Below are positions 21,852 to 52,551 of a stretch of 64,000 nucleotides of DNA, in pieces. This DNA is from an uncultured Candidatus Saccharibacteria bacterium (GTDB lineage: Bacteria; Patescibacteriota; Minisyncoccia; Phycocordibacterales; DATDWN01). Position 1 is the stretch's first letter, and the number at the start of each line of letters is the position of its first letter. The notes under the pieces are model-generated. The model was given only the letters and a program-made list of their open reading frames with translations, was not told the DNA's origin and did no database searches. Location of the stretch: assembly GCA_964469605.1 (NCBI GenBank), contig CAYXZA010000001.1, forward strand, positions 71,274 to 135,273, written 5' to 3'. Made by a program: the position numbers and the translations under genes.

Positions 21852-21962
21852 AAAGCATTTTCATATTGTTTTTTAGAGACTTGCGAAGTTGACTGAACTG
21901 AGCACGAGGAATTTTTCAGTAGAAAAATATCCGTGCTCTAAAAAACAATATGAAAATGCTTT
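21852..21962 (+). repeat. palindrome-nested conserved element, copy A (core 21872-21943)
   Basis: Core 'TTTTAGAGACTTGCGAAGTTGACTGAACTGAGCACGAGG...ATCCGTGCTCTAAAA' flanked by exact ~24-bp inverted arms 'aaagcattttcatattgtttttt' / 'aaaaaacaatatgaaaatgcttt', followed by a T-run, directly 3' of the PBP gene. Confidence 0.75.
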
Positions 21963-21971
21963 ATATTATTT

Positions 21972-22217
21972 TTATTTAATATTATTTAAACCAAAACTAA
22001 GTAAATCTTTTAAAATATTATTTTTATTTAAAATAATTTTGTTTTTTTTAAGAGGTGTTGTTTTTAAAACAACAAAACCTTTATTTAAAGAAAATTCTTC
22101 TTGTTTTAGTAGTATATTTGTATGTTTTTTTACTGAAAAAATAACCATTTCAAACAAATCAAAATCATTTTTAATTTTATTTTGATGTTTTTTTAGATAA
22201 GATTCTATATTAAACAT
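21972..22217 (-). CDS. small hypothetical protein downstream of dnaN
   Basis: 81-aa ORF whose start abuts the dnaN stop. Function not recognisable. Confidence 0.3.
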   Translation of the reverse strand: MFNIESYLKKHQNKIKNDFDLFEMVIFSVKKHTNILLKQEEFSLNKGFVVLKTTPLKKNKIILNKNNILKDLLSFGLNNIK

Positions 22218-23317
22218 TATTTATTCATAGACATAACCAAGTATAGAAAACTTTTATCATTAACTCCTTTTATAACAACTGGTTTACTATTATCATTAAA
22301 AGAAAGTATTATCGAATCAGATTCAATAGACTGAAAACAATCTATTATATATTTATAATTAAAACTAATAGATTCAATACTATCCCCTTTTATAACAACT
22401 TCTACTTTGTTTTTATTTTCTCCAACATCTATATTTTTTGTTGTTATTTCAAAAATATTATCTTTTGGTAAAATTTTAAAATAAACCTGACTAAACTTAT
22501 CAGCAAAAATATTTGATATTTTTAAAGAATTTATAAGATCTTGTTTAAGTAAAACCACTTCTGTTTTAAATTCTTTTGGTATAAAGTTCCTATAATCAGG
22601 ATAAACACCGTTTATAACCCTAGAAACAAGATAAATATCCTCATAAACCAAACACATCTGACCATCATTTATAAAAAAACTAATATTACCAGAAACATCA
22701 TCAAAAGCTTTTATTATTTCATTTATATTTTTAAAAGGTATTAAAATCTGATTAAATTCATTATTTTTCTTAACTTTCAATGTTTTTTCAGCCAAACGAA
22801 AACCGTCAGTTGAAACAAAAACAATACTATCACCGTCTGGGTAAACCATAACACTAGAAAGTGTTGGTTTTATAGATGAAACAGAAGCAGAATAATAAAC
22901 ATTTTTTAAACCTTTAATAAAATCAGAAGCATTCATCTCAAAAATAACATCATTTTGAATTTTAGGTATTATAGGAAAATCATCAGATGAGACTGATTTT
23001 ATAACAGTATTCGTATGTTCAGTAGAAACAATGAGATTATTTGATGATAATTCAAGTGTTATATTTTTATCAAAAACATTTGAAACAAAGTTTGTTATAA
23101 CAGAACTAGAAACACAAACACTACCCTCTTCTAAAACTTTAACAGGTAAAGATATTTCTAAACCAAGATCAAGATTTGTGCTAGATATAAAAAGTTTACC
23201 AGAAGTAGCTTTTAGCATTATTGTAGATAAAATAGGTAAAGAAGCATTTTTAGCAGTCATTTTATCTGCTTTATTTAAAGCTTTAGCTAATTTATCTTTT
23301 ATACATTCTATTTTCAT
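22217..23317 (-). CDS. dnaN: DNA polymerase III beta sliding clamp
   Basis: 'MKIECIKDKLAKALNKADKMTAKNASLPILSTIMLKA', ~366 aa with a three-domain clamp pattern. Immediately downstream of dnaA. Confidence 0.85.
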   Translation of the reverse strand: MKIECIKDKLAKALNKADKMTAKNASLPILSTIMLKATSGKLFISSTNLDLGLEISLPVKVLEEGSVCVSSSVITNFVSNVFDKNITLELSSNNLIVSTEHTNTVIKSVSSDDFPIIPKIQNDVIFEMNASDFIKGLKNVYYSASVSSIKPTLSSVMVYPDGDSIVFVSTDGFRLAEKTLKVKKNNEFNQILIPFKNINEIIKAFDDVSGNISFFINDGQMCLVYEDIYLVSRVINGVYPDYRNFIPKEFKTEVVLLKQDLINSLKISNIFADKFSQVYFKILPKDNIFEITTKNIDVGENKNKVEVVIKGDSIESISFNYKYIIDCFQSIESDSIILSFNDNSKPVVIKGVNDKSFLYLVMSMNK

Positions 23318-23558
23318 ATTATTAATACTATTAGTCCTGTTTATTTGTGTAAAACTTATAAAAATGGCTTATTTTATGGTTTTTTTAATAAACAGTCTGT
23401 GGATAAATGTTGATTATATGTGTATATATTATGTCAATAAAAGATAATACACAAGTCTGTTTTTATAAATATTAACAAATCAACATATTATTCAGTTTTA
23501 AATCATAGGTTATTGATAACATATCCACATACATATACACATATATATCCACACCCAC
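23318..23558. promoter_or_regulatory. candidate oriC segment: DnaA boxes plus an AT-rich unwinding region in the dnaA-dnaN intergenic space
   Basis: Perfect box TGTGGATAA (23398-23406, reverse of TTATCCACA). Two 8/9 boxes ATATCCACA (23521-23529, 23545-23553). A ~80% AT stretch lies at 23440-23520. Confidence 0.5.
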
Positions 23559-23657
23559 CTTTTAAGTATGAAGTTTAGAACACGGATAAATTTTTGCTAA
23601 AATTTTCCTCGTGCTCGGTAGAGTCACTCGCAAGTTTCTAAACTTTATACTTAAAAG
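23559..23657 (-). repeat. palindrome-nested conserved element, copy C (inverted orientation)
   Basis: Reverse complement matches the copy A/B core with a compensatory G:C to A:T change in the terminal stem. Inverted arms 'cttttaagtatgaagtttagaa' / 'ttctaaactttatacttaaaag'. Lies 3' of dnaA, adjacent to the DnaA boxes. Confidence 0.75.
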
Positions 23658-23680
23658 AATATATATCTACATACCTATAA

Positions 23681-25021
23681 CTAAGCCAATATTGATCTAA
23701 GTTGGTTTATTTCATCGGCTAGATTTTGGTTTTTATCTATACCCTCTTTTATTTTGTCACAAGCATGCATAACTGTTGTGTGATCTCTACCTCCTAGTTT
23801 TTCACCTATTGATGGGTAAGAATTGTTGAATTCTTCTCTTAAAAGATACATTATAACTTGTCTTGGTTTTATAACCTCTTTTTTTCTTGTTTTTTCATAT
23901 ATTAACCCTTCTTCTATGTTGTAAAAATCAGAAACTGTTTTAACAATATCTTTTATTGATACTGTTTTTTTATTTTTTGCAGTGTTTTTTAGTAAATTTT
24001 TTACATCAGATATGGTTAATTCTTTATTTTTTAACTGTGCATGGCATATTATTGTGTTTAGTGCCCCTTCCAACTCTCTAATGTTTCCTGTTACAGAAAA
24101 TGCTATAAAATCAACTATTTCTCTTTCTAAATTGAAGTTATTTAAACTAGCTTTTGTTTTTATAATAGCTATACGAGATTCATTATCTGGTGCTGGTATA
24201 TCTATTATCATACCAGCAGAAAATCTTGATTTTAGTCTTTCTTCAAGATCTTGTATTAAAGAAGGATGTTTGTCTGATGAAAATATTATCTGTTTGTTAT
24301 TTTCATATAAATGGTTAAAAAGATGAAATAATTCTTCTTGTGTTTTCATTCTTCCTGATAAAAACTGAATATCGTCCATAATCAAAACATCATATTTTCT
24401 ATATTTTTCTTTAAAAAAGTTTGGTCTGTTGTTTTGAACAGCATTTACATATTCTTGTCCAAATTTTTCAGATGTGGTGTAAAAAACTTTTCTACCTGTG
24501 TTTTTAAGTGTGTTACCTATTGCTTGAATAAGATGTGTTTTTCCGTGACCTGTATTTCCGTGTATAAAAAGAGGGTTATAAACTATACCAGGTTTTTTTA
24601 TTATAGCTTGCGAAGCTGCATGAGCTAGTTCATTAAATGGTCCAACAACAAAATTATCAAAGGTATATTTAGGATTTAGATTGTCGTCTTTATTTATAAT
24701 AAAGTTCTCAATAGGAAGTTCTTTTGTGATAATAACAGGTCTTTCTTGCATTGTTTTCAGTATTTTATCGTCTTTTGAAACTATATAGTGTAGTGAATGT
24801 ATACTCGTGGTTATGTTTCTAAGTGATTTTAATATAATATTGTGAAATTTATTTTTCAACCATTCTTGAACAAAGTTGTTTGGAACTGATAGGTATATTG
24901 TTCCATCATCAAATTTAATTATTTTAGTATCTTTAAACCAAGTATTAAAGTTTGGTTTAGAAATAGCTAATTCTATTTCAACCAAAACTGTATCCCAAAT
25001 TTTTTTTAAATCCATTTCCAT
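23681..25021 (-). CDS. dnaA: chromosomal replication initiator DnaA
   Basis: AAA+ 'GNTGHGKTHLIQAIGN', 'VLIMDDIQFL', and a C-terminal DNA-binding helix 'GGRDHTTVMHACDKI'. Confidence 0.9.
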   Translation of the reverse strand: MEMDLKKIWDTVLVEIELAISKPNFNTWFKDTKIIKFDDGTIYLSVPNNFVQEWLKNKFHNIILKSLRNITTSIHSLHYIVSKDDKILKTMQERPVIITKELPIENFIINKDDNLNPKYTFDNFVVGPFNELAHAASQAIIKKPGIVYNPLFIHGNTGHGKTHLIQAIGNTLKNTGRKVFYTTSEKFGQEYVNAVQNNRPNFFKEKYRKYDVLIMDDIQFLSGRMKTQEELFHLFNHLYENNKQIIFSSDKHPSLIQDLEERLKSRFSAGMIIDIPAPDNESRIAIIKTKASLNNFNLEREIVDFIAFSVTGNIRELEGALNTIICHAQLKNKELTISDVKNLLKNTAKNKKTVSIKDIVKTVSDFYNIEEGLIYEKTRKKEVIKPRQVIMYLLREEFNNSYPSIGEKLGGRDHTTVMHACDKIKEGIDKNQNLADEINQLRSILA

Positions 25022-25093
25022 ACCAATAATTATATCTTGACTGTAAAAAGATAGAACTTGATAAAGATATTTAATTATGTTAATAATATATAT

Positions 25094-25252
25094 ATGTCAC
25101 AAACATATAAACCTAAAAAAAGAAAAAGAGCTAAAACTCACGGATTTCTTTCAAGAAAAAAATCTGTGAAAGGATCTAAAACTTTACTTAGAAGATTAAG
25201 AAAAGGAAGAAAGAGACTTTCAACTGTTAGTCAAAAAGCTAATAAAAAATAG
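25094..25252 (+). CDS. rpmH: 50S ribosomal protein L34
   Basis: 'MSQTYKPKKRKRAKTHGFLSRKKSVKGSKTLLRRLRKGRKRLS', divergent from dnaA. Start chosen at the internal ATG. Confidence 0.85.
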   Translation: MSQTYKPKKRKRAKTHGFLSRKKSVKGSKTLLRRLRKGRKRLSTVSQKANKK

Positions 25253-25257
25253 TTTTA

Positions 25258-25605
25258 ATGTTTTTTGCTAAAAACAAAATAAAAAGATCTGAATTTAAAC
25301 TTATAGAAAAGGTTAAACCATTTAATTTAAATTCAGATTCTTTTTATTTAAACATATATAACTATCCAGATCTTTTTAAATATCCAAAAATTGCTTTTAG
25401 TTGTTCAAAAAAGGTATCAAATAGTGCTGTTGTTAGAAATAAACTAAGAAGAAGAGGGTATTCTGTTTTAAGGGATTTTGTTGATAATATTAAAAATGGT
25501 TACTTTTTACATTTTTCATATAAAAAAAATTCAATAAATAAATCTTTTAAAGATTTAAAAATTGAGATTAGTCAGGTTTTAGAGCTTTCCAAAGTTTTAA
25601 ATTAG
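25258..25605 (+). CDS. rnpA: RNase P protein component
   Basis: Conserved rpmH-rnpA-yidC synteny and a basic 'VVRNKLRRRGYSV' RNR-like motif; ~115 aa. Confidence 0.6.
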   Translation: MFFAKNKIKRSEFKLIEKVKPFNLNSDSFYLNIYNYPDLFKYPKIAFSCSKKVSNSAVVRNKLRRRGYSVLRDFVDNIKNGYFLHFSYKKNSINKSFKDLKIEISQVLELSKVLN

Positions 25606-25622
25606 TTTAAAATATAATAATT

Positions 25623-26336
25623 ATGATATCAAATTTTTTTCACATAGTTTTTTATGATCCGCTTTATAATGGACTTATATTTATATTCAATATATTTCCT
25701 AGTTTAGATGCTGGTTTTGCTGTTATAGTTTTTACTATTATAGTTAAACTAATCCTCTTCCCTCTTTCCATAAAAGCAACAAAATCACAAATGGAAATGA
25801 AATCCATTGAAAATGATTTAAATTTTATAAAAGAAAAATACAAAGAAAATAAAGAAGAACAAGCTAAAAAAATTGTTGAACTTTATAAAGAGAGAGATAT
25901 AAACCCTTTTTCAGGTATTTTTGTTATCTTAATCCAACTTCCTATTATTATTGCTTTGTATAAGGTTTTTATGTCTTCTGGTTTACCAACAATATCATCT
26001 GATATATTATACTCATTTATACATATTCCAGATTATATAAATATGAAATTTCTAGGAATTTTAGATATTAGAAATAAAAATATTATTTTAGCTATATTAT
26101 CTGGAATATCAAGTTTTTTACAAGCTAAATATGCTCAAATCTCCACAAACACATCAACAGAAAAACAATCAGATTTTTCAAAAGCTATGAGTTTGCAAAT
26201 GAAGTTTGGTTTCCCTGTGTTAATGTTTATTATTTCCCTATCATTATCATCTGCTATTGCTCTTTATTTTATAACAAGCAATATTTTTACAATCTTTCAA
26301 GAGATTTATTTAAAAAGAAAAATTAGAAAATCTTAA
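25623..26336 (+). CDS. yidC: membrane protein insertase YidC/Oxa1 (short form)
   Basis: 'LILFPLSIKATKSQ..MK..Q..L..I.EKYK.N...Q.....LYKE...NPFSG' and five TM helices. Confidence 0.8.
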   Translation: MISNFFHIVFYDPLYNGLIFIFNIFPSLDAGFAVIVFTIIVKLILFPLSIKATKSQMEMKSIENDLNFIKEKYKENKEEQAKKIVELYKERDINPFSGIFVILIQLPIIIALYKVFMSSGLPTISSDILYSFIHIPDYINMKFLGILDIRNKNIILAILSGISSFLQAKYAQISTNTSTEKQSDFSKAMSLQMKFGFPVLMFIISLSLSSAIALYFITSNIFTIFQEIYLKRKIRKS

Positions 26337-27568
26337 TTTCCAATATTTAAACTCCATAAACTTCCACCATCTGCTTTGTTTTTAAATATTAAAAACAAGT
26401 TATCTTTATCTATATGTATCTCATCTATATCAATATTTTTACCAGATTCTTCTTTTAAAGAAATTATTTTCTCTGAAACATTTTCCTTTATGTTGTATTT
26501 CCATATTTCATCAACGAATCCAATAGTTCCAAAATACCAATTATCAATAGAGTTACTCTCTATATTACCTTCTGGAACAGCACAATAAACAACATCTTTT
26601 TCTTTAATACTAAACACACATTTTTCTGGAAAAGTTTTTGGATATAATGTTTTAATACTGTTTGCTTTAAAATTTAATACATAAAAATTAAATTCTGGAA
26701 GAGTTTCGTTAAATAGCATATTTTCACCTAATGAATCTGTGTTTGTGGTTAAACCATAAACTTCTCCTAAAATTTTCTTAAAATCACCTTTTGCTGATAG
26801 TCTGTATACATAACCAAAAGTTTGATAATTTGGTTTTGTTGTAAGTGTAATTAAATTATCATTTACAAATTGAGGAATAAGGTGTTTTAGTTTATCTGTC
26901 CAAATCTGAGTATTTTTATAATCAGGTGCTTTTGATATAAAACCATAAGAATCACCTCTTCTTATGAAATAAAATAAATTTCCATTATTTTGTCCAACTG
27001 AAACACTTTCTATAAGCGGACTAAGTGTTTTTACAGATAAAGATGACTCTGTTGAGGATGAATTTAAAATACTAATAAAACTATTTTCAACAGAATCATC
27101 ATCTTTTAAGTATTGTGCAACAAAAGAATTTCCTTTGTTTGTAAAATAAACTTTTTGAGTATTTAGTATTGTTTTATTTGATATTCTATCTTTTTTTTCT
27201 GAAAAAGTTGACGAGTCGTATATATGACCTGTTCCCTTTTCAACATATCTTATATAAAGACCATCATTTTTGGCAACAAAAGTAAATCCAGATACAGGAT
27301 CTTTTGATATGAGTCTAAGTTTTTGTTTATAATCCTCAACCTCTATTTCTGGCTCCTCTGGTTTAAATATTGGTTTTTCTGTATCCACTACATTTTCTGT
27401 TTGTCCAAAAGGAAAAAAATCTGTAATAGAAACTTTTTTACCACTTGCGGTTTTCTCGTCAGATTTGATTAAAAAATAATACAAACCAAGAGAAATGGCT
27501 AAAAGTGTCAATATTATTCCCGATATAATAAGTATTTTTTTCATATTATTTAAAATTGTACATGCCAA
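26333..27568 (-). CDS. exported hypothetical protein (last gene of T4SS-like operon)
   Basis: N-terminal TM anchor, 411 aa, start overlapping the upstream pilin-like gene. Confidence 0.5.
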   Translation of the reverse strand: MACTILNNMKKILIISGIILTLLAISLGLYYFLIKSDEKTASGKKVSITDFFPFGQTENVVDTEKPIFKPEEPEIEVEDYKQKLRLISKDPVSGFTFVAKNDGLYIRYVEKGTGHIYDSSTFSEKKDRISNKTILNTQKVYFTNKGNSFVAQYLKDDDSVENSFISILNSSSTESSLSVKTLSPLIESVSVGQNNGNLFYFIRRGDSYGFISKAPDYKNTQIWTDKLKHLIPQFVNDNLITLTTKPNYQTFGYVYRLSAKGDFKKILGEVYGLTTNTDSLGENMLFNETLPEFNFYVLNFKANSIKTLYPKTFPEKCVFSIKEKDVVYCAVPEGNIESNSIDNWYFGTIGFVDEIWKYNIKENVSEKIISLKEESGKNIDIDEIHIDKDNLFLIFKNKADGGSLWSLNIGN

Positions 27569-28365
27569 TGATTTCCAGTTGCAGTTCCATTTGCTCCAAT
27601 GACTTCATAAACAAAAATAACATCTTTACCGTTTATTTTTTTAGTTACTTTATCATTGTTTTGAGGGGTCGGTTTACCTAAAAATTTATTTAAATCATCT
27701 GATGGTTTCAAATCAACCTGACCTCTACCTACTGCATGTGTTTGATGGCCACCTTCTGTTCCGCCTGTTACCTGCACAAAACAACCAGAGCAATCTTTTT
27801 TTAATTGTATCAATCCGTCAATAGCACTTTTAGGCATACCTCCAACAGATGTACAACCTTGTGTCTGTGCTCCTATACAAGGGTTGTCGTGGTTTATTGA
27901 AATACCTCCATTTGTGAGTGATTTTCTAACATCTTCTTCACTATCTCCCCAACCTACAAAAACAAGATCGGCAGCTCTTTGTATATTTGGTTTTATGATC
28001 TTTAAATTTAAATTCAAAGAATTTGGATTTATTTCATAAATAATTGCATAAGATACCAGTATAAAAAATAATCCTTTTAGTGTGCTCCATATTTTATCTT
28101 TAATATCTGTCTTGGCAGAAGGGTTCAGACCTTTGGTTGCATATAAAAAACCTTGATAAACTAGCAATAAAAACGACCAAGTTATTCCTAATCCTAAAAT
28201 AAAGTAAAAGATTCTTGGAATAAATTTCTCTAAATCAACAGATTGACCTTTTTCATATACACCAGGCAGTGATGTTAGTGTTCTGTATTCTAGTTTAGCA
28301 AATGCAAAAGCTGGTATTGTTAAGAATATTACAAACATTATTATTTTAATATAGTTTTTTTTCAT
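27550..28365 (-). CDS. VirB2/TrbC-pilin-like N-terminal module fused to a Cys/His-rich C-terminal domain
   Basis: Signal peptide (…PAFAFA) plus two hydrophobic helices separated by a short basic loop gives the VirB2 topology. This is followed by a ~150-aa domain 'NHDNPCIGAQTQGC...GGHQTHAVGRG'. Confidence 0.4.
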   Translation of the reverse strand: MKKNYIKIIMFVIFLTIPAFAFAKLEYRTLTSLPGVYEKGQSVDLEKFIPRIFYFILGLGITWSFLLLVYQGFLYATKGLNPSAKTDIKDKIWSTLKGLFFILVSYAIIYEINPNSLNLNLKIIKPNIQRAADLVFVGWGDSEEDVRKSLTNGGISINHDNPCIGAQTQGCTSVGGMPKSAIDGLIQLKKDCSGCFVQVTGGTEGGHQTHAVGRGQVDLKPSDDLNKFLGKPTPQNNDKVTKKINGKDVIFVYEVIGANGTATGNHWHVQF

Positions 28366-29426: not shown

Positions 29427-29430
29427 TTAT

Positions 29431-29533
29431 CCTATAAAGATATAATTTTAGAGACTTGCGAGGTTGACTGAACCGAGCACGAGGAAAATTTTAGCAAAAA
29501 TTTATCCGTGCTCTAAAATTATGTCTTTATAGG
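29431..29533 (+). repeat. palindrome-nested conserved element, copy B (core 29446-29517)
   Basis: Core is near-identical to copy A. Inverted arms 'cctataaagatataatttt' / 'aaaattatgtctttatagg'. Sits inside the T4SS-like operon between the 166-aa gene and the 353-aa gene. Confidence 0.75.
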
Positions 29534-29595
29534 ATAAACTTCAATATACATAACTTATAAAAATCACAACTTTAAAATGTAAATACACTTGCTCT

Positions 29596-31891: not shown

Positions 31892-31893
31892 GT

Positions 31894-32532: not shown

Positions 32533-32570
32533 AAAAAAATTATAACATATTTATTTTTTTATAAATATGT

Positions 32571-33005
32571 TTACAATTTATTTGATAAATCTTTTTTGTT
32601 TGTATTGTCTTGTTGTTTTATATCAAGACTCCAAGACAGCTCTTTTAACTTACTATCTGAAAGTTTTGGAACATAAATATCATTTGTAGATGTTTTACTT
32701 TGCTGATTTGTTACTATTTCAATTTTATCTTCTTTTTTCCAAACATATAGTTTTTTATTGAGATAAAATTTTACAGCAGACTCCAAAAGATCTTCAAACG
32801 GTTTGTCGTTGAATCTATAAAAAGCTAGTGATAGTGCTAAAACAGTTATTAAAACAAGTGCAATTAGTCCAAATATTGATGGTAATAGCTTATAAAAGAC
32901 AAAACCCATTCCAGCACCTCCTGCTAGGTAAATAAATTGCTTAAATGTTAAATTTGCAATAAGTTTGTCTTCTATCTCTATAAATTGTGGAACTTGAAAT
33001 CTCAT
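32571..33005 (-). CDS. PrgI/VirB3-like small membrane protein
   Basis: 'FIEIEDKLIANLTFKQFIYLAGGAGMGFVFY' matches the PrgI-family start (k.e.kl.g.fT.rQl..l..g), followed by two TM helices. Confidence 0.55.
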   Translation of the reverse strand: MRFQVPQFIEIEDKLIANLTFKQFIYLAGGAGMGFVFYKLLPSIFGLIALVLITVLALSLAFYRFNDKPFEDLLESAVKFYLNKKLYVWKKEDKIEIVTNQQSKTSTNDIYVPKLSDSKLKELSWSLDIKQQDNTNKKDLSNKL

Positions 33006-33014
33006 TTTTTTAAT

Positions 33015-33692: not shown

Positions 33693-33697
33693 TTTGT

Positions 33698-37533: not shown

Positions 37534-37600
37534 AAAATATATATAAAATTATATAACAATCAATAATTTTTATCATCAAAAACTGTTGAAAACCAAAAAG

Positions 37601-38476: not shown

Positions 38477-38532
38477 ATAAATTCTAACATAATATATAAT
38501 GTAAATATACTTATTTTATTAACAATTTTTCT

Positions 38533-40611: not shown

Positions 40612-40615
40612 GAGT

Positions 40616-41377: not shown

Positions 41378-41444
41378 TTGTTATAAAAGGTAGCATATTT
41401 AAACAAAATCTGCCAAATGGCAGATTTTTGTTTAAGCTTCCGTA

Positions 41445-41777: not shown

Positions 41778-41801
41778 ATTTTTTAATTATATTATAACTT
41801 T

Positions 41802-42203: not shown

Positions 42204-42211
42204 CTACTATT

Positions 42212-44167: not shown

Positions 44168-44380
44168 AGTATTTTAACATAGTATTTTTATTTTTAATTA
44201 TAATTATAAATAATAATAAAAATGTTTGGTTAAAAATACTCTATAAATAATTGACATGTTGTCATGTATTATTGTATAATATGTGTGTTATTAGTAGCCA
44301 GTGGCAAAAGCCTTAAATTTCCAAGCTGGTATCTATAACAAGCCCTTTGCTACGGCATTGGGTTCTCTACGGAGAAAAAA

Positions 44381-45507: not shown

Positions 45508-45541
45508 AGTGTAAGTAAAAGTCTCGCTACTATGCGAGCAT

Positions 45542-45571
45542 AGCCCGCTCTTCGGAGCGGGCTGTTTTTTT
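45542..45571 (+). terminator. GC-rich intrinsic terminator ending the foreign cassette
   Basis: AGCCCGCTC-ttcg-GAGCGGGCT followed by T8. Confidence 0.65.
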
Positions 45572-45740
45572 AAATAAAGACTTTCAGTTTAATTTTGTAT
45601 TTTACAGTTTGCTGTTGACAATCTCATTTGGTTTTGGTAATATATAGAAGTCAGATTGTTTAGTTTCGCCCGAAAGGCGAATAATTTTTTACCAAAATTC
45701 AAGTAAATTTTAAAAATATTTAACAGTTAAATTATATATT

Positions 45741-46907
45741 ATGTTTGATCTAAAAATAATAAATTCAGTAATGACTCAACTTCAAGAGGAAAGAGGTATT
45801 CCAAAAGAGAAAACACTTGAAGCTATAGAGATGGCTCTTGCTACTGCTTATAGAAAAGAATATGGCAAAAAAGGCCAGATAATAAAGGCTAAATTTGATC
45901 TTAATTCTGGAAAAACAGAGTTTTTTCAAGTGAAAATCGTTGTTGATGAAACAATTGTTTTGATGGATTTTCCAGATGGTGAAGCTCTTCCGGAGGGTAA
46001 GGTTTTGTATAACCCAGAACATCATATGATGATCTCTGATGCTAAATTTATAAAAAAAGATGCTTCTTTGGGTGAAGAAATAGTCTTCCCTCTTGAAGAT
46101 AAGGCAGATTTTGGAAGAATTGCTGCTCAAACTGCAAAGCAAATAATTATGCAAAAGATAAGAGAAGCTGAAAAAGTTTCTGTCTTTGGTGAATATGGCA
46201 AAAGAGAAGGTGAAATTGTCTCTGGAACAGTTCAAAATATTGAGAGAGGAACGGTTTTTATTGATATGGGTAGAGCAACAGGAATACTGTCTTATGATGA
46301 ACAAATACCAGGAGAAAGATTCTCACAAGGTGAAAGAGTTAAAGCATACTTGTTTCAAGTTGATGAGTCTCCAAAAGGTGTGTTTTTGAAACTATCAAGA
46401 TCACATCCTAGATTTTTGGAAAAACTTTTTGAAGCAGAAGCACCGGAGCTTGTAAACGGCACCGTGATTATAAAATCTGTTGCAAGAGAAGCTGGTTCAA
46501 GAAGTAAAGTGGCTGTTTTTGCTTCCGATTCTCATATAGACCCTGTTGGCTCTCTAGTTGGTCAAAAAGGTGTTAGAGTTTCAACTGTTATGTCAGAGTT
46601 AGGTGGTGAAAAAATAGATGTAATAGAATACAGTGAAGATCCTACAAAATTTATAGCAGAAGCACTCTCTCCTGCTAGAATATTAAATATTGATGTAAAT
46701 GAAGATGATAAAATTGCAAAAGTTGAAGTTTCAGAAGATCAACAGTCTCTTGCTATCGGAAAAGGTGGTCAAAATGTTCGTCTTGCTGCAAAATTGACAG
46801 GTTACAAGATAGATATATCATCTTCTGGTGCATCTTCTGAGGATTCAGAAGATGAAGGTTTTATAGATTTAAAGACTGCTATGGAAAATACTGATTTTTC
46901 AGAGTAA
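45741..46907 (+). CDS. nusA: transcription termination/antitermination factor NusA
   Basis: N-terminal 'MFDLKIINSVMTQLQEERGIP', an S1 domain, two KH domains ('IGKGGQNVRLAAKLTGYKIDI'), and an acidic C-terminus. Confidence 0.9.
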   Translation: MFDLKIINSVMTQLQEERGIPKEKTLEAIEMALATAYRKEYGKKGQIIKAKFDLNSGKTEFFQVKIVVDETIVLMDFPDGEALPEGKVLYNPEHHMMISDAKFIKKDASLGEEIVFPLEDKADFGRIAAQTAKQIIMQKIREAEKVSVFGEYGKREGEIVSGTVQNIERGTVFIDMGRATGILSYDEQIPGERFSQGERVKAYLFQVDESPKGVFLKLSRSHPRFLEKLFEAEAPELVNGTVIIKSVAREAGSRSKVAVFASDSHIDPVGSLVGQKGVRVSTVMSELGGEKIDVIEYSEDPTKFIAEALSPARILNIDVNEDDKIAKVEVSEDQQSLAIGKGGQNVRLAAKLTGYKIDISSSGASSEDSEDEGFIDLKTAMENTDFSE

Positions 46908-46945
46908 TTTTAAAATATAGGTATAAAAAAGCGACTCAGGATATG

Positions 46946-47062
46946 TACCTATCCCTTAAAAGCATAATATTTAGAACACGGATAAATTTTTACTAAAATT
47001 TTCCTCGTGCTCGGTAGAGTCACTCGCAAGTTTCTAAACATTATACTTTTAAGGGATAGTGT
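46946..47062 (-). repeat. palindrome-nested conserved element, copy D
   Basis: Core 46970-47038 is near-identical to copy C. Inverted arms 'atcccttaaaagcataatat' / 'attatacttttaagggat'. Directly 3' of nusA. Confidence 0.75.
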
Positions 47063-47194
47063 ATCAAGAACCAAGATATACACCGAAAAGACTCTTTTAA
47101 AGAGTTTTTTGTGATATAATTTTAGGTAGTGATACGATGTTATCACTACTTTGTAATCAAGTATAATCTAAATTATTTTTTAACTTTAAAACAT

Positions 47195-47899
47195 ATGAAT
47201 AAAAAATTATTGATGTCAATTATGGTATTTGCATTTTTGCCAATATCTTTAACTTTTGCAGAAGATGGTAGTTCTTCGTCTACAACACCCAAACCTCCTA
47301 TAAGAAGAGAAGAAATGAGAGAGTTTAACAATGGTATAGGAGATCAAAGAAAAGAGATGAATGAAAAGATAAGGAATGAAAGAAAAGAGATGAACAAGGA
47401 TTTTGTAGAAAATATGAAAAATGCATCTTCTTCAGATCAACGAAAAACTATTATTGATCAAAGAAAAGAAGATGGTCAAAAAATGAGAGAAAATGCCAGT
47501 TCAACAAGAAGAGAATTTAATGAAAGAGCTAAGGATATGAGGATTCAAGAGAGAATGAAAGCAAATTTCAGAGTAAATTTAATGAAAATTGAGGCTAATA
47601 TAAATAGAATATCTAAATTGATAGAAAAACTTGATTCTAGGATAGCTAAACTAAAAGAAGTTGGGGGAACATTTTCAACAGCAGAAGGATTATCTGCTGA
47701 GGCAAAACAACATTTATCTGATGCTAAGACTTCATACGAATCTCTAAAAACAATGGAACCAAAAGAAGAAAATAAAGAAACTATAAAAAAGAGTATGGAA
47801 TCTATTAAAACTCACCTAGAAGAATCAAGAAAAGCAATAGATCTTGCTGTTAAGTCTTTGAAAAAACCAGTTACTGCTTCAACAACAAAAACAAATTAG
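47195..47899 (+). CDS. exported Lys/Glu/Arg-rich coiled-coil protein
   Basis: Signal peptide 'MNKKLLMSIMVFAFLPISLTFA', then repetitive 'ERKEMNEKIRNERKEMNKD'. Confidence 0.5.
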   Translation: MNKKLLMSIMVFAFLPISLTFAEDGSSSSTTPKPPIRREEMREFNNGIGDQRKEMNEKIRNERKEMNKDFVENMKNASSSDQRKTIIDQRKEDGQKMRENASSTRREFNERAKDMRIQERMKANFRVNLMKIEANINRISKLIEKLDSRIAKLKEVGGTFSTAEGLSAEAKQHLSDAKTSYESLKTMEPKEENKETIKKSMESIKTHLEESRKAIDLAVKSLKKPVTASTTKTN

Positions 47900-47928
47900 T
47901 TAAATTATAAAAATAATAAAAAATAAAA

Positions 47929-48258
47929 ATGGAAAATCAAACTCAAAATCCTAACCCTGTAAATCAACCTAATGTTGTTTTAAATCAGGTTGCTTCACAA
48001 CCATCATCATCTACTGGTTCTATTATGGCTACTATTATTGTTATAGCACTTCTCATTTTAGGAGGACTTTATTTTTGGGGTAAAAGAATCGAGACTCAAA
48101 GAGAAAACCAAAAAGCTCTTTTAGAAATCTCAAATATGGAAAATGCGGCTGCTGTTGAGATTTCAAATATAAACAATATCAGTGCAGATGATAGTCTAGA
48201 TTCTCTCCAAAAAGATATAAATTCTACAAATATTGATTCTATAGATTCAAATATATAA
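47929..48258 (+). CDS. small single-pass membrane protein
   Basis: 109 aa with one TM (IMATIIVIALLILGGLYFW). Confidence 0.4.
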   Translation: MENQTQNPNPVNQPNVVLNQVASQPSSSTGSIMATIIVIALLILGGLYFWGKRIETQRENQKALLEISNMENAAAVEISNINNISADDSLDSLQKDINSTNIDSIDSNI

Positions 48259-48337
48259 GAAATTTCTTTATATGATGCGTTCTGAAAAAATCCACAAAAA
48301 GTGGATTTTTTCTTTTTTTTAAGATAGACTGGGTTTT

Positions 48338-49429
48338 ATGAAAAAAGAAGATATTAAAAATTTAAAAAAAGAAGATGTTGGGGATAAAAAAATCTCTGTT
48401 ACGGGAGAGATCGATAAAGATGTTTTAAACAGTGCTTTTAACAAAGCTCTTAAAGAGATAAAGATTACATTTGAAGCAGATGGTTTTAGAAAAGGTTTTG
48501 TTCCTGAAAGTGTTATTTTATCTAAAATTGGTGATATGAAAGTTTTACAGGCTGCTGCTGAGGATCTGCTAAATGAAGCATATAAAGTTATTGTTGATGA
48601 GTTTAAAATAGATCCAATTGGTAGACCAGAGATATCTATAAACAAGATTGCAAAGGATAATCCTCTAGGATTTTCAATGGTTTTTTATTTAAGACCTGAT
48701 GTTAAATTGGGAGACTATAAATCAATTGCTGGTGTGGAAAATAATAAACCAGAAGAAGATTTTGTTGTATCTGAAAGTGAGGTTGATGATGTTGTAAAAG
48801 AGTTAAGATATCAGATTGCTCATTCTAAAATGCACAATGAAAGTGGTCTTTCTGAAAATGATCATAGTCACAAAGAGATAAAAGATGAAGATTTACCGGA
48901 GGTTAATATGGATTTTGTTAAACTATTTGGATCATTTTCTAGTGTTGATGATTTTAGAGAAAAGATAAAGTTAAATATTAAAGAAGATAAAGATTTTAAA
49001 GCAAAAGATAAAAAAAGAACCTCTCTTTTAGATGCTGTTGTTGAAAAATCAAAAATTGAAATGCCTGAGATTGTTATTTCAGGTGAGGTTGAAAAGATTA
49101 GAGCTCAATTTGAAGATGATCTAAAAAAGACAGGTCTTTCTTTTGATGGTTACCTATCTCATATAAAGAAAACAGAAGATGAAGTTTTGGAATCTTGGAA
49201 ACCTTTGGCTAAAAAAAGAGCAGAAACTCAACTTGTATTGTCTGCTATCGCCAGAGAGGAAAAAATAGAACCAAAAGAGGAGGATATTAAAAGAGAGGTT
49301 GATAATATTGTGTCATCTGTTAAAGGTGCTGATAGATTTAGAGCCAGAATGTATGTTGAAAATTTCTTGACTAATGATCTGGTTATAAAATTTTTAGAAT
49401 CTATAAAAACAGACTCAAAGCAACAATAG
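48338..49429 (+). CDS. tig: trigger factor (short form, PPIase region reduced)
   Basis: Ribosome-binding N-domain 'GFRKGFVPESVILSKIG' (the GFRxGxxP signature). Lies upstream of clpP as in many bacteria. 363 aa. Confidence 0.7.
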   Translation: MKKEDIKNLKKEDVGDKKISVTGEIDKDVLNSAFNKALKEIKITFEADGFRKGFVPESVILSKIGDMKVLQAAAEDLLNEAYKVIVDEFKIDPIGRPEISINKIAKDNPLGFSMVFYLRPDVKLGDYKSIAGVENNKPEEDFVVSESEVDDVVKELRYQIAHSKMHNESGLSENDHSHKEIKDEDLPEVNMDFVKLFGSFSSVDDFREKIKLNIKEDKDFKAKDKKRTSLLDAVVEKSKIEMPEIVISGEVEKIRAQFEDDLKKTGLSFDGYLSHIKKTEDEVLESWKPLAKKRAETQLVLSAIAREEKIEPKEEDIKREVDNIVSSVKGADRFRARMYVENFLTNDLVIKFLESIKTDSKQQ

Positions 49430-50099
49430 GTGCAGTTTCAGCTCTAAGTATTTGAGGTCCAATAGAAAAACCATAAACATTGTATTTCTCAAATATTTTT
49501 AGATCATTTTCTCCGAAACCACCTTCTGGGCCTATAAATATGGCTATTGATTTTTGATTGTTATTTGATTTTAAGTATTCTTTGATAGGTGGTCTGTTTG
49601 GGTCAAGAAATATTTTTTCTTGTGGCAAAATACCGCTTTCCAATAGTTTTTCAATATCGTATATATCTAAAATATTGGTCAAATCCCCTCTTCCAGACTG
49701 TTCACTTGCTTCTTTGATAATTTTCTCTACTCTTTTAGTATTTAGATTTTTTTTCTCACTTCGCTCTGTTTGTATTGGGACTATTGTGTTTACCCAAAGT
49801 TCTGTTGCTTTCTCGGTTACAAATTCAAATTTATCTTTTTTTATCATTGACATACAAAGCCAAATACTTTTTTCTGATTTTTGGATCTCTCTGCTTTTGA
49901 TGATTTCAAGTGTTGCCCCTAGATTTCTAAGTGATGTTATGACAGATAAATACTCTAAACCACTTCCATCAAATACTATAACCTGACTACCAACATTGTA
50001 TCTGAAGACCTTTTTCCATTGAAAAACAAGATCTTTGTCGTCTATATCAAATTTTTTACTCTCTATTTTTTTGTTTATATAAAACCTGTGAAGTCTCAT
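49401..50099 (-). CDS. rsmE: 16S rRNA (uracil1498-N3)-methyltransferase RsmE
   Basis: 'MRLHRFYI' PUA-like start and SPOUT C-terminus 'FIGPEGGF...LGPQILRAETA'. Confidence 0.8.
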   Translation of the reverse strand: MRLHRFYINKKIESKKFDIDDKDLVFQWKKVFRYNVGSQVIVFDGSGLEYLSVITSLRNLGATLEIIKSREIQKSEKSIWLCMSMIKKDKFEFVTEKATELWVNTIVPIQTERSEKKNLNTKRVEKIIKEASEQSGRGDLTNILDIYDIEKLLESGILPQEKIFLDPNRPPIKEYLKSNNNQKSIAIFIGPEGGFGENDLKIFEKYNVYGFSIGPQILRAETAPIVALSLFL

Positions 50100-50180
50100 T
50101 GATATATTTAAACATATTTGCCTTTTGTTTACTATGGTGATACAATAGTTAACATATTAACAATTAAATTTTGAAATTTT

Positions 50181-50759
50181 ATGAGTATATTGATTCCAAC
50201 AGTTATTGAAAAGACAAATCTTGGAGAAAGAGCTTATGACATCTACTCTCGCCTACTTAAAGACAATATTATATTTCTAGGTGGCCCAATAGACGATCAT
50301 ACAGCAAATCTAGTCATAGCACAGCTACTTTTCTTGCAATCAGAAGATCCTAAAAAAGACATTTCCCTATATGTAAACTCTCCTGGCGGTTCCGTGACAG
50401 CTGGACTAGCTATCATAGACACAATGAATCATATTAAAAACAATGTTTCAACTGTTTGTGTTGGTTTAGCTGCTTCTATGGGAGCAATGATTTTATCTAG
50501 CGGAGAAAAAGGAAAAAGATATAGTCTTTCTAATGCAGAGATTATGATTCACCAACCTTGGGCAGAGGGTATAGGAGGACAAGCAACAGATATAGAAATA
50601 AGAGCAAAACATATTTTAAAATCAAGAGAAACTTTGAGTAAAATATTGGCTAAAAATACAGGACAACCGCTTTCAAAAATAGAAAAGGATGTTGACAGAG
50701 ACTTCTTTATGTCAGCAGAAGAAGCTAAAAAATACGGCATAATAGACAAAGTTCTATAA
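50181..50759 (+). CDS. clpP: ATP-dependent Clp protease proteolytic subunit
   Basis: '[24 protein letters not shown]', catalytic Ser '[11 protein letters not shown]', and 'MIHQP'. Confidence 0.9.
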
Positions 50760-50899
50760 TTCTTGTATATTTATATTGTAGGCCTGTTTAGGCTTTACAA
50801 ATTTGTCAAATTAATTTTTAACTACTGTTTTGGACTTTAATATACTGAAATCCTGAATCTTAAAACATAAAACATAAAATTTAAATCTAAAAACGGCAG

Positions 50900-52441
50900 T
50901 TGCAAACCTATATGTCACTTAAAATAGTTTTAGCCCTGCTTTCTGGGGCAACAGTTATAGGTGTGCTTTTGGGATATTATTTAAGAGTTATTATATCTTT
51001 GGGTAAAAAAGGTTCTATGGAGCTTGAATTAAAGCAAATGGAACTTTCTGCAAAAAATAGAGAAAAAGAGATAATCAATGAGGCAGAAGAAAAGGCTGAA
51101 AAAATACTATCTGAGGCTCGCCTTGAGATAAAAGAGAAAGAAGAAAAAAACAAAAAAACAGAGGAAAGGCTTATTAAAAAAGAGGAATTTCTAGATAATA
51201 GACAACTTGATATAGACAAGGAAGTTGAAAATATCAAATCTAAGATATTGGAAATAAAGAAAATCAGAGAAGATGCTGATTTGATTTTGCTTGAAAGAAA
51301 AAATCTACTTGAAAAGGTGGCTTCCCTAACCAAAGATCAGGCAAAAGAGGAGATTTTGAAAACAGTAGAAAAGGAGTATGAAACTGATATATTAAACAGA
51401 ATAAATAAACTTGAGAAAAATGGAGAGGAAAGACTTTTAAGAAAAGCACAAGATATTTTAGCTACAACCATACAAAGACTTTCAAATTCTGTATCTGCTG
51501 ATATGTTAACTACTGCTGTATCTATATCTTCTGATGAAATAAAAGGAAAGATTATAGGAAAAGAAGGTAGAAATATAAAAGCTTTTGAGAGAGTTACTGG
51601 TGTTGAGCTTATTGTAGATGATACTCCTGGATTTATAACAATATCATCTTTTGATCCTGTTAGAAGACAGGTAGCAAAACTTGCACTTGAAAAACTTATA
51701 GCCGATGGGAGAATACAACCAGCAAAGATAGAAGAGATAGCTACCAAAGCCGAACAAGAAATAGGAAAAATAATAAAAGAAAAAGGAGATGAAGCTGTTT
51801 ACGAATGTGGAATACTAAATCTTGATCCAAAACTTGTATCTATAGTTGGAAGACTTCATTTTAGGACAAGTTATGGTCAAAATGTTTTGGCTCACTCTGT
51901 TGAGATGGCTCATATTGCGGGGATGTTGGCACAAGAGCTTGGTGCAAATGTCTCTGTGGCTAAGGCTGGTGCTTTGCTCCATGATATAGGAAAAGCTCTT
52001 GATCATGAGGTTTCTGGAACTCATGTTGAAATAGGCAGAAGGATACTTCAAAAATTTAATGTAGATGAGGAGGTGATAAAAGCTATGCAGGCACACCACG
52101 AAGAGTATCCTTATGAAACAGTAGAGTCAATCATAGTTCAATGTGCCGATGCTATCTCAGGTTCTCGTCCGGGAGCTAGAAGAGATTCTGTTGAAAACTA
52201 CTTAAAGAGACTTGCAGATTTGGAATCCGTTGCAAATTCATTTAAAGGGGTTGAAAAATCTTATGCCCTTCAAGCTGGTAGAGAAATAAGAGTTTTTGTA
52301 ACACCGAGCGAAGTTTCTGATTTGGAAGCTAAAAATATAGCATTTGAGATGGCTAGAAGAATAGAAGATGAGCTGAAATACCCAGGAGAGATAAAAGTAA
52401 ATGTTATTAGGGAAAACAGGGTTATTGAATATGCAAAATAA
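50900..52441 (+). CDS. rny: ribonuclease Y
   Basis: N-terminal TM, coiled coil, KH 'IIGKEGRNIKAFERVTG', HD 'HSVEMAHIAGMLAQELG...LHDIGK'. Confidence 0.9.
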   Translation: MQTYMSLKIVLALLSGATVIGVLLGYYLRVIISLGKKGSMELELKQMELSAKNREKEIINEAEEKAEKILSEARLEIKEKEEKNKKTEERLIKKEEFLDNRQLDIDKEVENIKSKILEIKKIREDADLILLERKNLLEKVASLTKDQAKEEILKTVEKEYETDILNRINKLEKNGEERLLRKAQDILATTIQRLSNSVSADMLTTAVSISSDEIKGKIIGKEGRNIKAFERVTGVELIVDDTPGFITISSFDPVRRQVAKLALEKLIADGRIQPAKIEEIATKAEQEIGKIIKEKGDEAVYECGILNLDPKLVSIVGRLHFRTSYGQNVLAHSVEMAHIAGMLAQELGANVSVAKAGALLHDIGKALDHEVSGTHVEIGRRILQKFNVDEEVIKAMQAHHEEYPYETVESIIVQCADAISGSRPGARRDSVENYLKRLADLESVANSFKGVEKSYALQAGREIRVFVTPSEVSDLEAKNIAFEMARRIEDELKYPGEIKVNVIRENRVIEYAK

Positions 52442-52452
52442 TAAACCTATCC

Positions 52453-52551
52453 CGTTAAAAGTATAATTTTAGAGCACCGATAAATTTTTGCTAAAATTTT
52501 CCTCGTGCTTGGTAGAGTTACTTGAAAGTCTCTAAAATTATACTTTTACGG
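52453..52551 (-). repeat. palindrome-nested conserved element, copy E
   Basis: Core 52467-52537 (divergent copy). Inverted arms 'ccgttaaaagtataatttt' / 'aaaattatacttttacgg'. Directly 3' of rny. Confidence 0.7.

Follow-up and report, generated by a model that had tools for sequence, protein, structure and literature searches.

Long hairpins with a predicted three-way-junction core form a dispersed family near gene 3' ends in tiny-genome Paceibacterota

The window, that is, the whole 64,000-nt stretch of DNA that was analysed, carries genes for PBP1, DnaA and DnaN, NusA, RNase Y and HU together with a T4SS-like operon. In an initial annotation, five copies of a conserved element had been placed beside these genes, each at the centre of a long perfect palindrome. 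All five copies lie where they were placed and the neighbours are as named. The observation of a five-copy repeat with long stems is partly confirmed; the palindromes are near-perfect rather than perfect. A 39-nt core probe allowing up to 3 mismatches recovered four copies in the window and none in shuffled sequences; copy A, which this probe missed, was recovered by a repeat search and a covariance model. Folding predictions give every copy a long hairpin, at -29 to -49 kcal/mol and z = -5 to -10 against shuffles.

Copy A (21846..21968, + strand, 123 bits with the covariance model) separates an 81-aa ORF from the convergent PBP1 gene, whose stop is at 21840. Its outer helix, P1, has a Watson-Crick part of 27 bp (21852-21878 paired with 21936-21962, +), and its core, TTTTAGAG...CTCTAAAA, spans 21871-21943 (+). 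Copy B (23559..23657, - strand, 99 bits) sits in the dnaA-dnaN spacer, ~20 nt past the dnaA stop and beside a DnaA-box cluster; its P1 holds one A.C mismatch and its core belongs to a subtype that has lost 2 nt from P2 and ends in TTTAGAA/TTCTAAA. This double change had been assigned to copies C and D; it exists, in copies B and D (23559 and 46946). Copy C (29427..29537, + strand, 129 bits), which sits in antisense direction within the T4SS-like operon, matches the consensus of the initial annotation exactly. The 5' strand of its P1 (29427..29453, +), a variable arm plus the conserved TTTTAGAG, pairs with 29511-29537 with one G.U, and is followed on the same strand by the junction J1/2 (ACUUGNGA, 29454..29461), the P2 hairpin (GGTT-GACTG-AACC, 29462..29474, with GA on both flanks as tandem G.A) and the P3 hairpin with its conserved AGCA loop (29480..29508). 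The ortholog of copy C in a relative (L027, 5339-5545) has the same orientation and a 77-nt nested insertion.

Copy D (46946..47062, - strand, 111 bits) lies ~41 nt past the nusA stop, antisense to nusA. Between its P1 arms (46949-46976 and 47032-47059), two pairs are G.U when read on the forward strand, and its core is only 1-2 nt apart from that of copy B. About 30 nt past copy D stands the native intrinsic terminator of nusA (47091..47111, + strand; ACTCTT-ttaa-AAGAGT followed by the T-run TTTTTT), intact, separate from the copy and next to a promoter-like gtgatataatttta; its position is conserved in relatives that have no copy D. Copy E (- strand, 92 bits) starts 5 nt past the rny stop, antisense to rny. 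It has a perfect 19-bp P1 (52456-52474 with 52530-52548, -) and a 12-nt insertion (taatataattaa) that breaks one arm. Past this insertion an outer CCTATC/GATAGG pair continues the stem, and the true span of copy E is therefore 52446-52569.

The unit common to these copies is a hairpin of ~110-135 nt with a conserved centre of ~73 nt, folding as a three-way junction of P1, P2 and P3. The inner end of P1, (G)ATTTTAGAG/CTCTAAAAT(T), is conserved in the unit, and the outward extension, 10-22 bp, differs in sequence in each copy; the conserved inverted repeat is limited to the inner 8-10 bp (GATTTTAGAG/CTCTAAAATT). Whole stems reach 16-30 bp, are A+T-rich and enclose a structured insert of 57 nt. 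P2 is a 4-bp helix capped by a GAC(N)G loop, with tandem G.A on its flanks, and P3 carries the conserved AGCA loop. Apart from its N, the junction strand ACUUGNGA does not vary in 49-50 of 50 copies, although it lies outside the pattern used in the search.

The core had also been viewed as a conserved structured module, and here the proposal holds. Paired cells make up 88% of the family alignment and 67% in shuffles; two-sided changes affect 27 of the 33 P1 pairs, all four P2 pairs covary, and P3, 99% paired, has four pairs with two-sided changes. Because the copies were gathered with a search pattern inside P3, part of the conservation seen in P3 and at the 3' end is a product of that search. 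The covariation seen across these alignments supports a three-way junction made of a long P1, a 4-bp P2 and a P3 capped by AGCA. Pairing of all helices is maintained through compensatory change, and the junction and loop nucleotides are invariant. The alternative pairing once suggested for the 3' end (GAGCACG/CGUGCUC) is feasible in the variant found in the window; it is not kept in a second variant, v2, which has a longer P2 helix, and three double changes favour the longer P1.

The core of the window copies recurs in 16 Paceibacterota/Parcubacteria genomes (21 copies), and 50 metagenome stretches plus the copies from CPR genomes give 54 distinct copies of the family. Two or three diverged variants occur alongside this core, and those named v2 and v3 retain the three-way architecture and the loops. 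Cores are near-identical between genomes whose DnaA proteins share at most ~70-75% identity. The initial annotation recognised no named repeat family in the core and none emerged: with Rfam 15 at gathering score, the whole window matches tRNAs and no other family, whole copies ranked by E-value give only generic miRNA-hairpin noise far under threshold, and the core alone has no match or E > 1. Nor is there a split, long or autonomous version in the 716 kb of collected loci. A cognate transposase was also proposed as a thing to look for; among the ~40 window ORFs scanned with Pfam there is no transposase, integrase, HUH, Y1-transposase or TnpA gene. The five window repeats are true members of an undescribed family of hairpin elements that many tiny-genome Paceibacterota (CPR) share.

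Comparison with relatives shows how these copies came to their sites. Three syntenic relatives (L027, L029 and L030) lack copy A; their convergent genes abut or overlap at this site and the hairpin is absent. The dnaA-dnaN spacer is empty in L029 and L030. In the sister genome this spacer does hold a copy, in the opposite orientation and with a different core subtype; the two cores differ at 20 of 71 positions, which indicates independent insertion or replacement. Site D is empty in six loci of relatives (L115-L119 and L121) and site E in the sister genome (L119), in both cases without a hairpin. The arm sequences of A, D and E are absent from the corresponding empty sites as well. No target duplication appears when filled and empty sites are compared at A, D and E, no direct repeat flanks the stem ends in 53 copies, and no target motif is common to the flanks of the copies. 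The element has been gained at new intergenic sites, in either orientation and mostly a few to tens of nt from a stop codon. The initial interpretation is partly supported: its dispersed family gained near gene 3' ends is borne out, and its insertion into the loops of existing terminator hairpins is not.

The arms had been considered unique to each locus. This apparently holds for copy A, the only one in the window with seemingly unrelated arms, whereas the other four window copies (B, C, D and E) have arms homologous among themselves and to those of copies at other loci in the sister genome (mean identity 66% vs a background of 41-45%). Since the arms of D and E resemble those of copies elsewhere, arms and core arrive together: in the window's clade, the whole hairpin including its arms moves in as a unit. 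Once in place, the arms co-evolve. Between orthologous copies compensatory pairs prevail (for example, 4 compensatory changes against 1 one-sided) and core differences amount to only 1/72; at the pilB site, 2-nt indels match in both arms. Other genomes carry the element at a SpoU methylase gene, and there the arm nearer the gene consists of ancestral coding sequence (..LFGVL*, where the family consensus of 119 homologues is LF[RG][IV]L), of which the far arm is an inverted copy. In two further loci (L011 and L016), nearly the same arms enclose different core subtypes. Arms borne by the core in the window's clade and arms taken from the host flank at the SpoU site are reconciled here only by inference. 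Syntenic copies with co-evolving arms, which were said beforehand to favour a conserved terminator-RNA module over mobility, do occur at several old sites. Because hairpins are gained at new sites and arms co-evolve at old syntenic ones, both mobility and the long-term maintenance of pairing are real.

The stems also carry a strand signal. P1 wobbles count 36 G.U and 8 A.C (p = 2.5e-5), and the bias persists in copies antisense to the adjacent gene (17 vs 3). A recurrent G.U at the tenth P1 pair, which may be inherited, is part of this count; leaving it out gives ~23 vs 8. Such a G.U excess on one strand suggests that a folded single strand is what selection sees. Relative to neighbouring genes ~18 copies are sense and 21 antisense (~50:50), and in 32 of 48 the forward strand of the element lies on the strand antisense to local genes. 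The copies sit at gene 3' ends with A-rich/T-rich arms, the first arm being A/G-rich in 42 of 53, which is the polarity of native terminators. As a counterpoint to any reading as a mobile hairpin, covarying helices with invariant loops and junction are equally typical of functional RNA, of which G.U pairs and tandem G.A are also classical marks.

How does this family compare with known systems? An intrinsic (Rho-independent) terminator closes a transcription unit with a short G+C-rich stem and an immediate U-run; the present hairpins share the position at gene 3' ends and the arm polarity, but their stems are long and A+T-rich and a T-run follows only some copies. In integron attC sites, the R/L boxes at the stem base are conserved and the centre is variable, and the sites line up beside intI in arrays of one orientation; the present family has a conserved centre and a variable base, and its copies are dispersed in both orientations. 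The elements depart from MITEs in that their outer 10-22 bp vary instead of forming conserved terminal inverted repeats and that target-site duplications are missing from the flanks of the 53 copies. IS200/IS605 elements and their miniature derivatives depend on strand-specific folded hairpins, require no terminal inverted repeats and make no target duplication. They carry two similar subterminal hairpins, insert beside a fixed tetra- or pentanucleotide, with the target at the left end, and depend on a TnpA partner. The one-strand wobble bias (36 to 8) and the missing duplication of the present family fit this pattern, but P2 and P3 are unlike in sequence and size, a long stem encloses them, no flank motif is found and the window holds no TnpA.

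REP/REPIN elements, which are mobilised by RAYT transposases (PMC3116915, PMC3337134), are also short, non-coding, extragenic hairpins, multi-copy, non-autonomous, persistent and vertically inherited, of which the whole hairpin replicates. Their architecture is the inverse: in REPINs the stem, two inverted REPs, is conserved and the loop or spacer varies, whereas the present family keeps its centre and varies its stem, and in this it does not fit REP/REPIN-RAYT. It also has no GTAG-type motif, and the ~40 window ORFs scanned give no match to RAYT (a single-copy gene in those systems) or another Y1-transposase. Correia repeat-enclosed elements (CREE/NEMIS) and ERIC/IRU of proteobacteria are likewise imperfect palindromes of ~100-150 bp that occupy transcribed intergenic regions in both directions; their transcripts fold into long hairpins open to binding or cleavage by RNase III, and they may overlap gene ends (PMC2649163, PMC2229807, PMC10969869). 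However, they have conserved terminal inverted repeats and, in CREE, a TA target duplication, whereas the present family shows no duplication, an unconserved outer stem and an inner part that forms a covarying three-way junction. The type I hammerhead ribozyme is similar in topology only, with three helices in the same order and a stem II matching the P2 hairpin, GA on both sides. The likeness ends there: the hammerhead core CUGANGA...GAA (+ UH) reads CUUGNGA...GAG in the present family, essential hammerhead nucleotides are missing and no Rfam hammerhead matches even at E = 10. Finally, quasipalindrome mutagenesis, in which template switching is documented to lengthen arm identity, accounts for arms that stay near-perfect, for indels that match between them, for paired changes outnumbering one-sided ones and for outward arm extension (PMC7202029, PMC3820800). 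It is a mutational process and not an element, and leaves the conserved core and the spread to new sites unexplained.

We weighed several explanations. The one we prefer, at a probability of about one half, is a non-autonomous, structure-specified mobile hairpin of Paceibacterota (CPR) whose stem is kept near-perfect by templated correction. A host-serving structured RNA spread merely by duplication, either a cis-acting 3'-UTR element or a small RNA gene, is the most credible competitor, although we consider it distinctly less probable. In its cis-acting version, an RNase III-type long stem and a protein-binding three-way junction would determine where mRNAs end, how stable they are or how operons are punctuated. 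The covarying helices and invariant junction and loops speak for it, and so do the strand-specific G.U bias with its recurrent pair, the tandem G.A beside P2, the pairing of orthologous sites across long divergence, the few nt that separate copies from stop codons, and cores near-identical despite the DnaA divergence. Against it, orientation is even or leans to antisense, so half or more of the copies would have the wrong strand in the host transcript, and the G.U bias tracks the element, not the gene. Moreover, the outer sequence is variable, hence no conserved promoter could travel along, close relatives manage without the element at sites A, D and E, and nusA retains its own terminator.

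The initial model takes the arms to be host terminators, whose hairpin loops were already there when a ~70-nt core, bounded by terminal inverted repeats of 7-8 bp, transposed into them; it now appears unlikely. IS1397 does insert into the loops of REP palindromic units, and the terminator-like arm polarity, the native perfect hairpins of 11-18 bp in the window, the host-derived arm at the SpoU site and the shared arms around different cores in L011 and L016 would all suit this model. It is contradicted at three sites, A, D and E, which when empty have neither hairpin nor arm sequences. It also conflicts with the intact nusA terminator, with the D and E arms that match arms at unrelated loci, and with the failure to find a core-less form of the arm hairpin in the window. 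Slightly less probable still is a miniature invertible DNA switch, flipped by a site-specific recombinase at the inner GATTTTAGAG/CTCTAAAATT repeat. Conservation of that repeat, the mixed orientations overall and the opposite orientation of the dnaA-dnaN spacer copy in the sister genome would agree with such flipping, but the two spacer copies also differ in core subtype and invertases would have to achieve synapsis across only 57 nt between the repeats, a very short distance. A duplex-DNA switch predicts neither compensatory evolution of small internal hairpins nor a strand-specific wobble bias, and none of the ~40 window ORFs scanned is a recombinase gene.

Returning to the mobile hairpin, we envision that one folded single strand is recognised and copied. 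This strand would most likely be DNA, a replication or transposition intermediate bound by a putative trans-acting protein. Beside selection, quasipalindrome correction, in which one arm serves as template for the other by intramolecular switching, likely keeps the long stem near-perfect, and the same switching is likely behind the fast divergence of the stem and its occasional growth into the host flank. At gene 3' ends, the element may persist as a long A-rich/T-rich hairpin that would be tolerated in transcripts from either direction, and that may double as a terminator or 3' barrier.

The five hairpins that the initial annotation placed in the window do lie where it put them, as inspection of the sequence showed, and they constitute a real repeat, far beyond chance. 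A 39-nt core probe allowing up to three mismatches matched four of the five copies in the window and nothing in 100 shuffles; copy A, which is more diverged, was recovered by a repeat search (88% to C) and by a covariance model. On the strand reading TTTTAGAGACTTG..., copies A (21846-21968) and C (29427-29537) are in the forward orientation and copies B (23559-23657), D (46946-47062) and E are reversed. Copy E spans 52446-52569, further than first drawn, one of its arms carrying a 12-nt insertion. Every copy folds as a single long hairpin (-29 to -49 kcal/mol, z -5 to -10), with stems that are near-perfect rather than perfect. The neighboring genes, PBP1, DnaN, DnaA, NusA, RNase Y and HU plus a PrgI/TraC/VirB4-like operon, were correctly named, and the G:C to A:U double change that had been assigned to copies C and D actually occurs in B and D.

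From alignment A2, the element is predicted to fold as a three-way junction. Its outer helix, P1, consists of the variable arm followed by the conserved (G)ATTTTAGAG/CTCTAAAAT(T), and the junction strand that leads from it to the second helix (J1/2) reads ACUUGNGA. P2, of 4 bp, closes a GAC(N)G loop and has a GA on either flank, while P3 has about 11 bp and an AGCA loop. Covariation, which the initial annotation had suggested checking, agrees with these helices: 88% of cells are paired, a share that falls to 67% in shuffles and to 38-54% if the partners are shifted by 1-3 columns, and both sides have changed at 4/4 P2 pairs and at four P3 pairs. Among 50 aligned copies, C40, U41, U42, G43, G45 and A46 are 98-100% invariant, and these junction positions were outside the search pattern. 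An alternative pairing proposed earlier, GAGCACG with CGUGCUC, can form in the main variant (v1) but is impossible for the 3' strand of the diverged variant v2, in which a GGUUUU/AAAAC helix lengthens P2 around the GA/GA loop. Since v2 precludes this pairing and double changes preserve the longer P1 (38:96, twice; 36:98, once), we regard the three-way junction as the fold that is conserved. In topology the element resembles type I hammerheads but differs from them in its core nucleotides (CUUGNGA/GAG), and none of the hammerhead Rfam models scores against it. In one copy (L081, 3988-4105), P2 is precisely deleted between the flanking GA dinucleotides (GACTTGCGA|GCACGAGG) and the remainder of the element is intact.

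The family extends well beyond the window, which is identical to a contig of metagenome assembly GCA_013565695.1 and whose DnaA has relatives labeled Paceibacterota, Zambryskibacteria or Minisyncoccota. A search with a single degenerate pattern returned 21 true copies in 16 species-representative CPR genomes, together with 4 chance matches; the hosts are Nomurabacteria, Parcubacteria, Paceibacterota and MAGs labeled Saccharibacteria. The same pattern found 50 stretches in metagenomes and had no match in viral contigs, so that no phage copies were found. A covariance model, R1, recovered every pattern-found copy and further ones, for a total of 54 distinct copies, and brought in diverged variants of the same architecture: v2 (for example L005 2591-2724), v3 (L014 6226-6360) and a longer form (L125). 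The initial annotation knew of no named family, and indeed neither the whole element nor its core matches Rfam 15, at gathering score or at permissive E-values; literature searches turned up no description of a CPR repeat or motif of this kind. The element is an undescribed repeat, defined by its structure and spread across the CPR. Because CPR/Patescibacteria genomes, of about 1 Mb, are densely packed and repeat-poor, a structured repeat that recurs roughly every 13 kb (five copies in the 64-kb window) and is conserved almost base-for-base across genera is unexpected. Several copies are located at contig ends; the elements break assemblies, their overlap with stop codons can mislead gene callers, and the covariance model can be used to annotate them.

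How did these hairpins arrive? It had been proposed that the core inserted into the loops of pre-existing terminator hairpins, each with arms unique to its locus. This is contradicted at all three sites that can be tested (A, D and E). At site A, no hairpin exists in the sister genome L027, whose DnaA is 90% identical to the window's, nor in the related L029 and L030; in all three the PBP gene and a convergent 81-aa ORF are 5 nt apart, abut or overlap. At site D, the element is absent from six loci of relatives, including genomes with a 92% identical NusA. There, a canonical terminator directly upstream of gtgatataatttta is common to the window and to the empty relatives; in the window this nusA terminator (47091-47111) stands intact about 30 nt past copy D. 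Site E, too, is unoccupied in the sister genome, and the empty sites hold nothing that matches the arm sequences of A, D or E better than chance would. Four of the five arm pairs are mutually homologous: the TATCCCACCAAAGCATAAT-like arms of B, C, D and E resemble one another as well as copies at unrelated loci in the sister genome and in the same metagenome, with a mean identity of 66% against a background of 41-45%. Because the empty sites lack arms and the arms are homologous across loci, we conclude that the whole hairpin is the unit gained in the window's clade. The window's native terminators form perfect stems of 11-14 bp (18 bp in one case), and none resembles the family arms. We also compared the L030 copy with a simple hairpin in the equivalent window spacer (32544-32571); the arms are not collinear, and the pair offers no evidence of loop insertion. 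Separately, the window carries at 62193-62229 a perfect 37-bp palindrome with 18-bp arms and a 1-nt center (ATAAAACTAAATGTTTCT a AGAAACATTTAGTTTTAT), non-coding, near tRNA genes, longer than ordinary window terminators and without the core.

Once in place, the arms change in concert. At old orthologous sites, arm differences are mainly compensatory pairs and the core is barely altered; between L022 and L046 there are 4 compensatory changes, 1 one-sided change and 1/72 core differences. At the pilB site (L022, L046, L018, L060), the arm covers the last two codons and the stop of the gene (..EE*), a synonymous GAA to GAG change is mirrored in the far arm, and an identical 2-nt indel is present in both arms. 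At a SpoU-methylase site (L005, L021, L053), the stop codon adjoins TTTTAGAG and the gene-proximal arm encodes F-G/A-V-L-stop. These residues sit where the Pfam domain runs out: the profile match stops at F, PDB alignments stop one residue later, and the last two or three residues fall outside. They fit the family C-terminal consensus LF[RG][IV]L(NI) across 119 homologues. The window's SpoU orthologue, which lacks an element, ends ..VVFTI*, and the short-form relatives L123 and L124 carry v2 elements only, with arms that stay clear of the gene. Given the fit to the consensus and the comparison with element-free and short-form genes, we conclude that the gene-proximal arm is ancestral host sequence and the distal arm its inverted copy. 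Quasipalindromes are known to undergo intramolecular template switching, which makes their arms perfect copies of each other and lengthens the matching stretch (PMC7202029, PMC3820800). Switching between arms could reconcile arms carried with the core and arms derived from the host, and would account for why the stems are near-perfect, why indels match between arms, why paired changes are in excess and why stems grow into a constrained flank.

The family also shows turnover and mosaicism. The core of window copy B is 1-2 nt from that of D and differs at 20/71 positions from the sister-genome copy in the same spacer, which has the opposite orientation. Likewise, P2 of window copy C is closer to that of A than to that of its own orthologue, and L011 and L016 share arms while their cores differ at 13/73 positions, mostly in the P2 and P3 stems. 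Such patterns point to copies being repeatedly inserted or replaced, or to gene conversion between them. In Nomurabacteria-type genomes, the convergent SpoU-methylase/Fpg spacer is a hotspot where v1, v2 and a longer variant sit side by side, in combinations that vary by genome (L005 2479-2724; L021 6887-7127; L125 3040-3290; just 3' of SpoU in L123 and L124).

Other repeats and structures accompany the family. A small hairpin module, TGAGAAGTGA(n4-6)TCACTTCGTAAAA, is nested in two element copies, within P3 as part of a 77-nt insertion in L027 (5339-5545) and in place of P2 in L030 (2174-2328), and may be a second miniature insertion family. A similar hairpin lies at about 9362-9392 of the window, in a repeat region behind tRNA-Lys(UUU) (9096-9169). 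Two further copies of the last ~18 nt of this tRNA (GATTCCTGCCAGGGGCAC) follow at about 9320 and 9490, separated by hairpin-rich units of ~170 nt that are themselves repeated (9221-9272 resembles 9390-9441, and 9152-9196 resembles 9490-9534) and hold an inverted T-arm copy (GCAGGAATCGAA); ARAGORN calls one tRNA only across 9080-9560. The pilB-ruvB spacer (15650-16013) contains a ~360-nt non-coding block conserved in three genomes (about 19850-20236 in L027 and 18360-18745 in L029), with long-range complementarity between its ends (GAGATAAATCTCTAAACGAC ... GTCGTTTAGAGATTTATACC). In appearance it resembles a structured RNA gene, and Rfam returned no family for it even at E = 1. Finally, a 59-nt inverted repeat (5352-5410 / 62484-62542; ATAAAAGCAAACATCTCGTCCAATCCTAGCAG...), 86% complementary and with arms 57 kb apart, may be a two-copy non-coding element and is unrelated to the three-way-junction family.

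Which molecule folds? At non-Watson-Crick positions of P1, the element's own reading strand has 36 G.U against 8 A.C (binomial p = 2.5e-5), an A.C on one strand being a G.U on the opposite one. The excess persists in copies antisense to the neighboring gene (17 vs 3). A G.U at the tenth pair (GAUUUUAGAG/CUCUAAAAUU) recurs in 14/50 aligned copies, and without this pair the count is about 23 to 8. Because a symmetric duplex or cruciform cannot yield such a wobble bias, selection must act on a single folded strand that the element itself specifies. By crude gene calls, copies run with and against the adjacent gene about equally often (roughly 18 sense, 21 antisense), and the C-rich strand of the flanking DNA carries the forward strand of the element somewhat more often than the opposite strand does, a weak association (32/48 loci, 32 to 16). 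A replication-strand rule from the position of dnaA fits the recent copies A (+) and B/D/E (-) and fails for C; the window's GC skew tracks gene direction, not an origin. A purine-rich 5' arm was discarded as a strand-specific signal, a palindrome reading alike on both strands; the bias shows only terminator-like arm polarity. The last arm bases beside the core often read TAnRAT (alignment columns 26-31; 52462-52467 in copy E), and where the G.U recurs, G prevails on the forward strand (TATGAT) and A on the reverse strand (TATAAT); the hexamer could be an asymmetric -10-like box. As a hexamer ending at the first T of TTTTAGAG, its enrichment over other registers comes largely from the conserved T.

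To explain these results, we favor, at a probability of about 0.5, a non-autonomous mobile hairpin that would be recognized as a folded single strand, its stem maintained by templated correction, and that would be tolerated, perhaps even useful, at gene 3' ends. The main rival, a functional RNA module, we consider less likely. A cis-acting mRNA element should be sense-biased and the promoter of an RNA gene cannot sit in a variable arm, and for these reasons the evidence tips toward a single-stranded DNA intermediate. As to signs of mobility, we found no target-site duplication or target motif at stem ends and no split or autonomous versions in the collected loci, and the cognate transposase that the initial annotation had thought worth seeking did not appear, about 40 window ORFs including no transposase or integrase. 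We also asked whether the arms could serve as guides against phages: scanned against viral contigs, two 18-mers yielded 28 and 5 matches scattered over unrelated viruses, giant-virus bins included, which we judged to be chance given A+T-rich 18-mers, making this arm test weak and uninformative. The favored mobile hairpin would work like REPIN- or Correia-type repeats, but it does not pass the tests that define them, since the parts conserved there are variable here and vice versa. A broader and still tentative proposal is that the family forms a new class of prokaryotic repeat, one identified by a folded single strand with a conserved three-way junction and not by its termini. It would either be copied by an unknown CPR protein or act as a new functional RNA or a ribozyme-like module, and its long closing stem would be continually rewritten by hairpin-templated synthesis, sometimes from host coding sequence.

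Were this so, the element would correspond to REPINs and MITEs turned inside out and, at gene ends, would be a natural source of long perfect palindromes. Should the folded strand be RNA, it would represent a widespread new RNA class, whose invariant junction calls for a ligand, a protein partner or catalysis. If it is DNA, a large uncultured part of the bacterial tree would harbor an unrecognized mobilization system, and the family would serve as a natural experiment in which to see how long palindromes arise, how they stay perfect and how they come to reach into genes.
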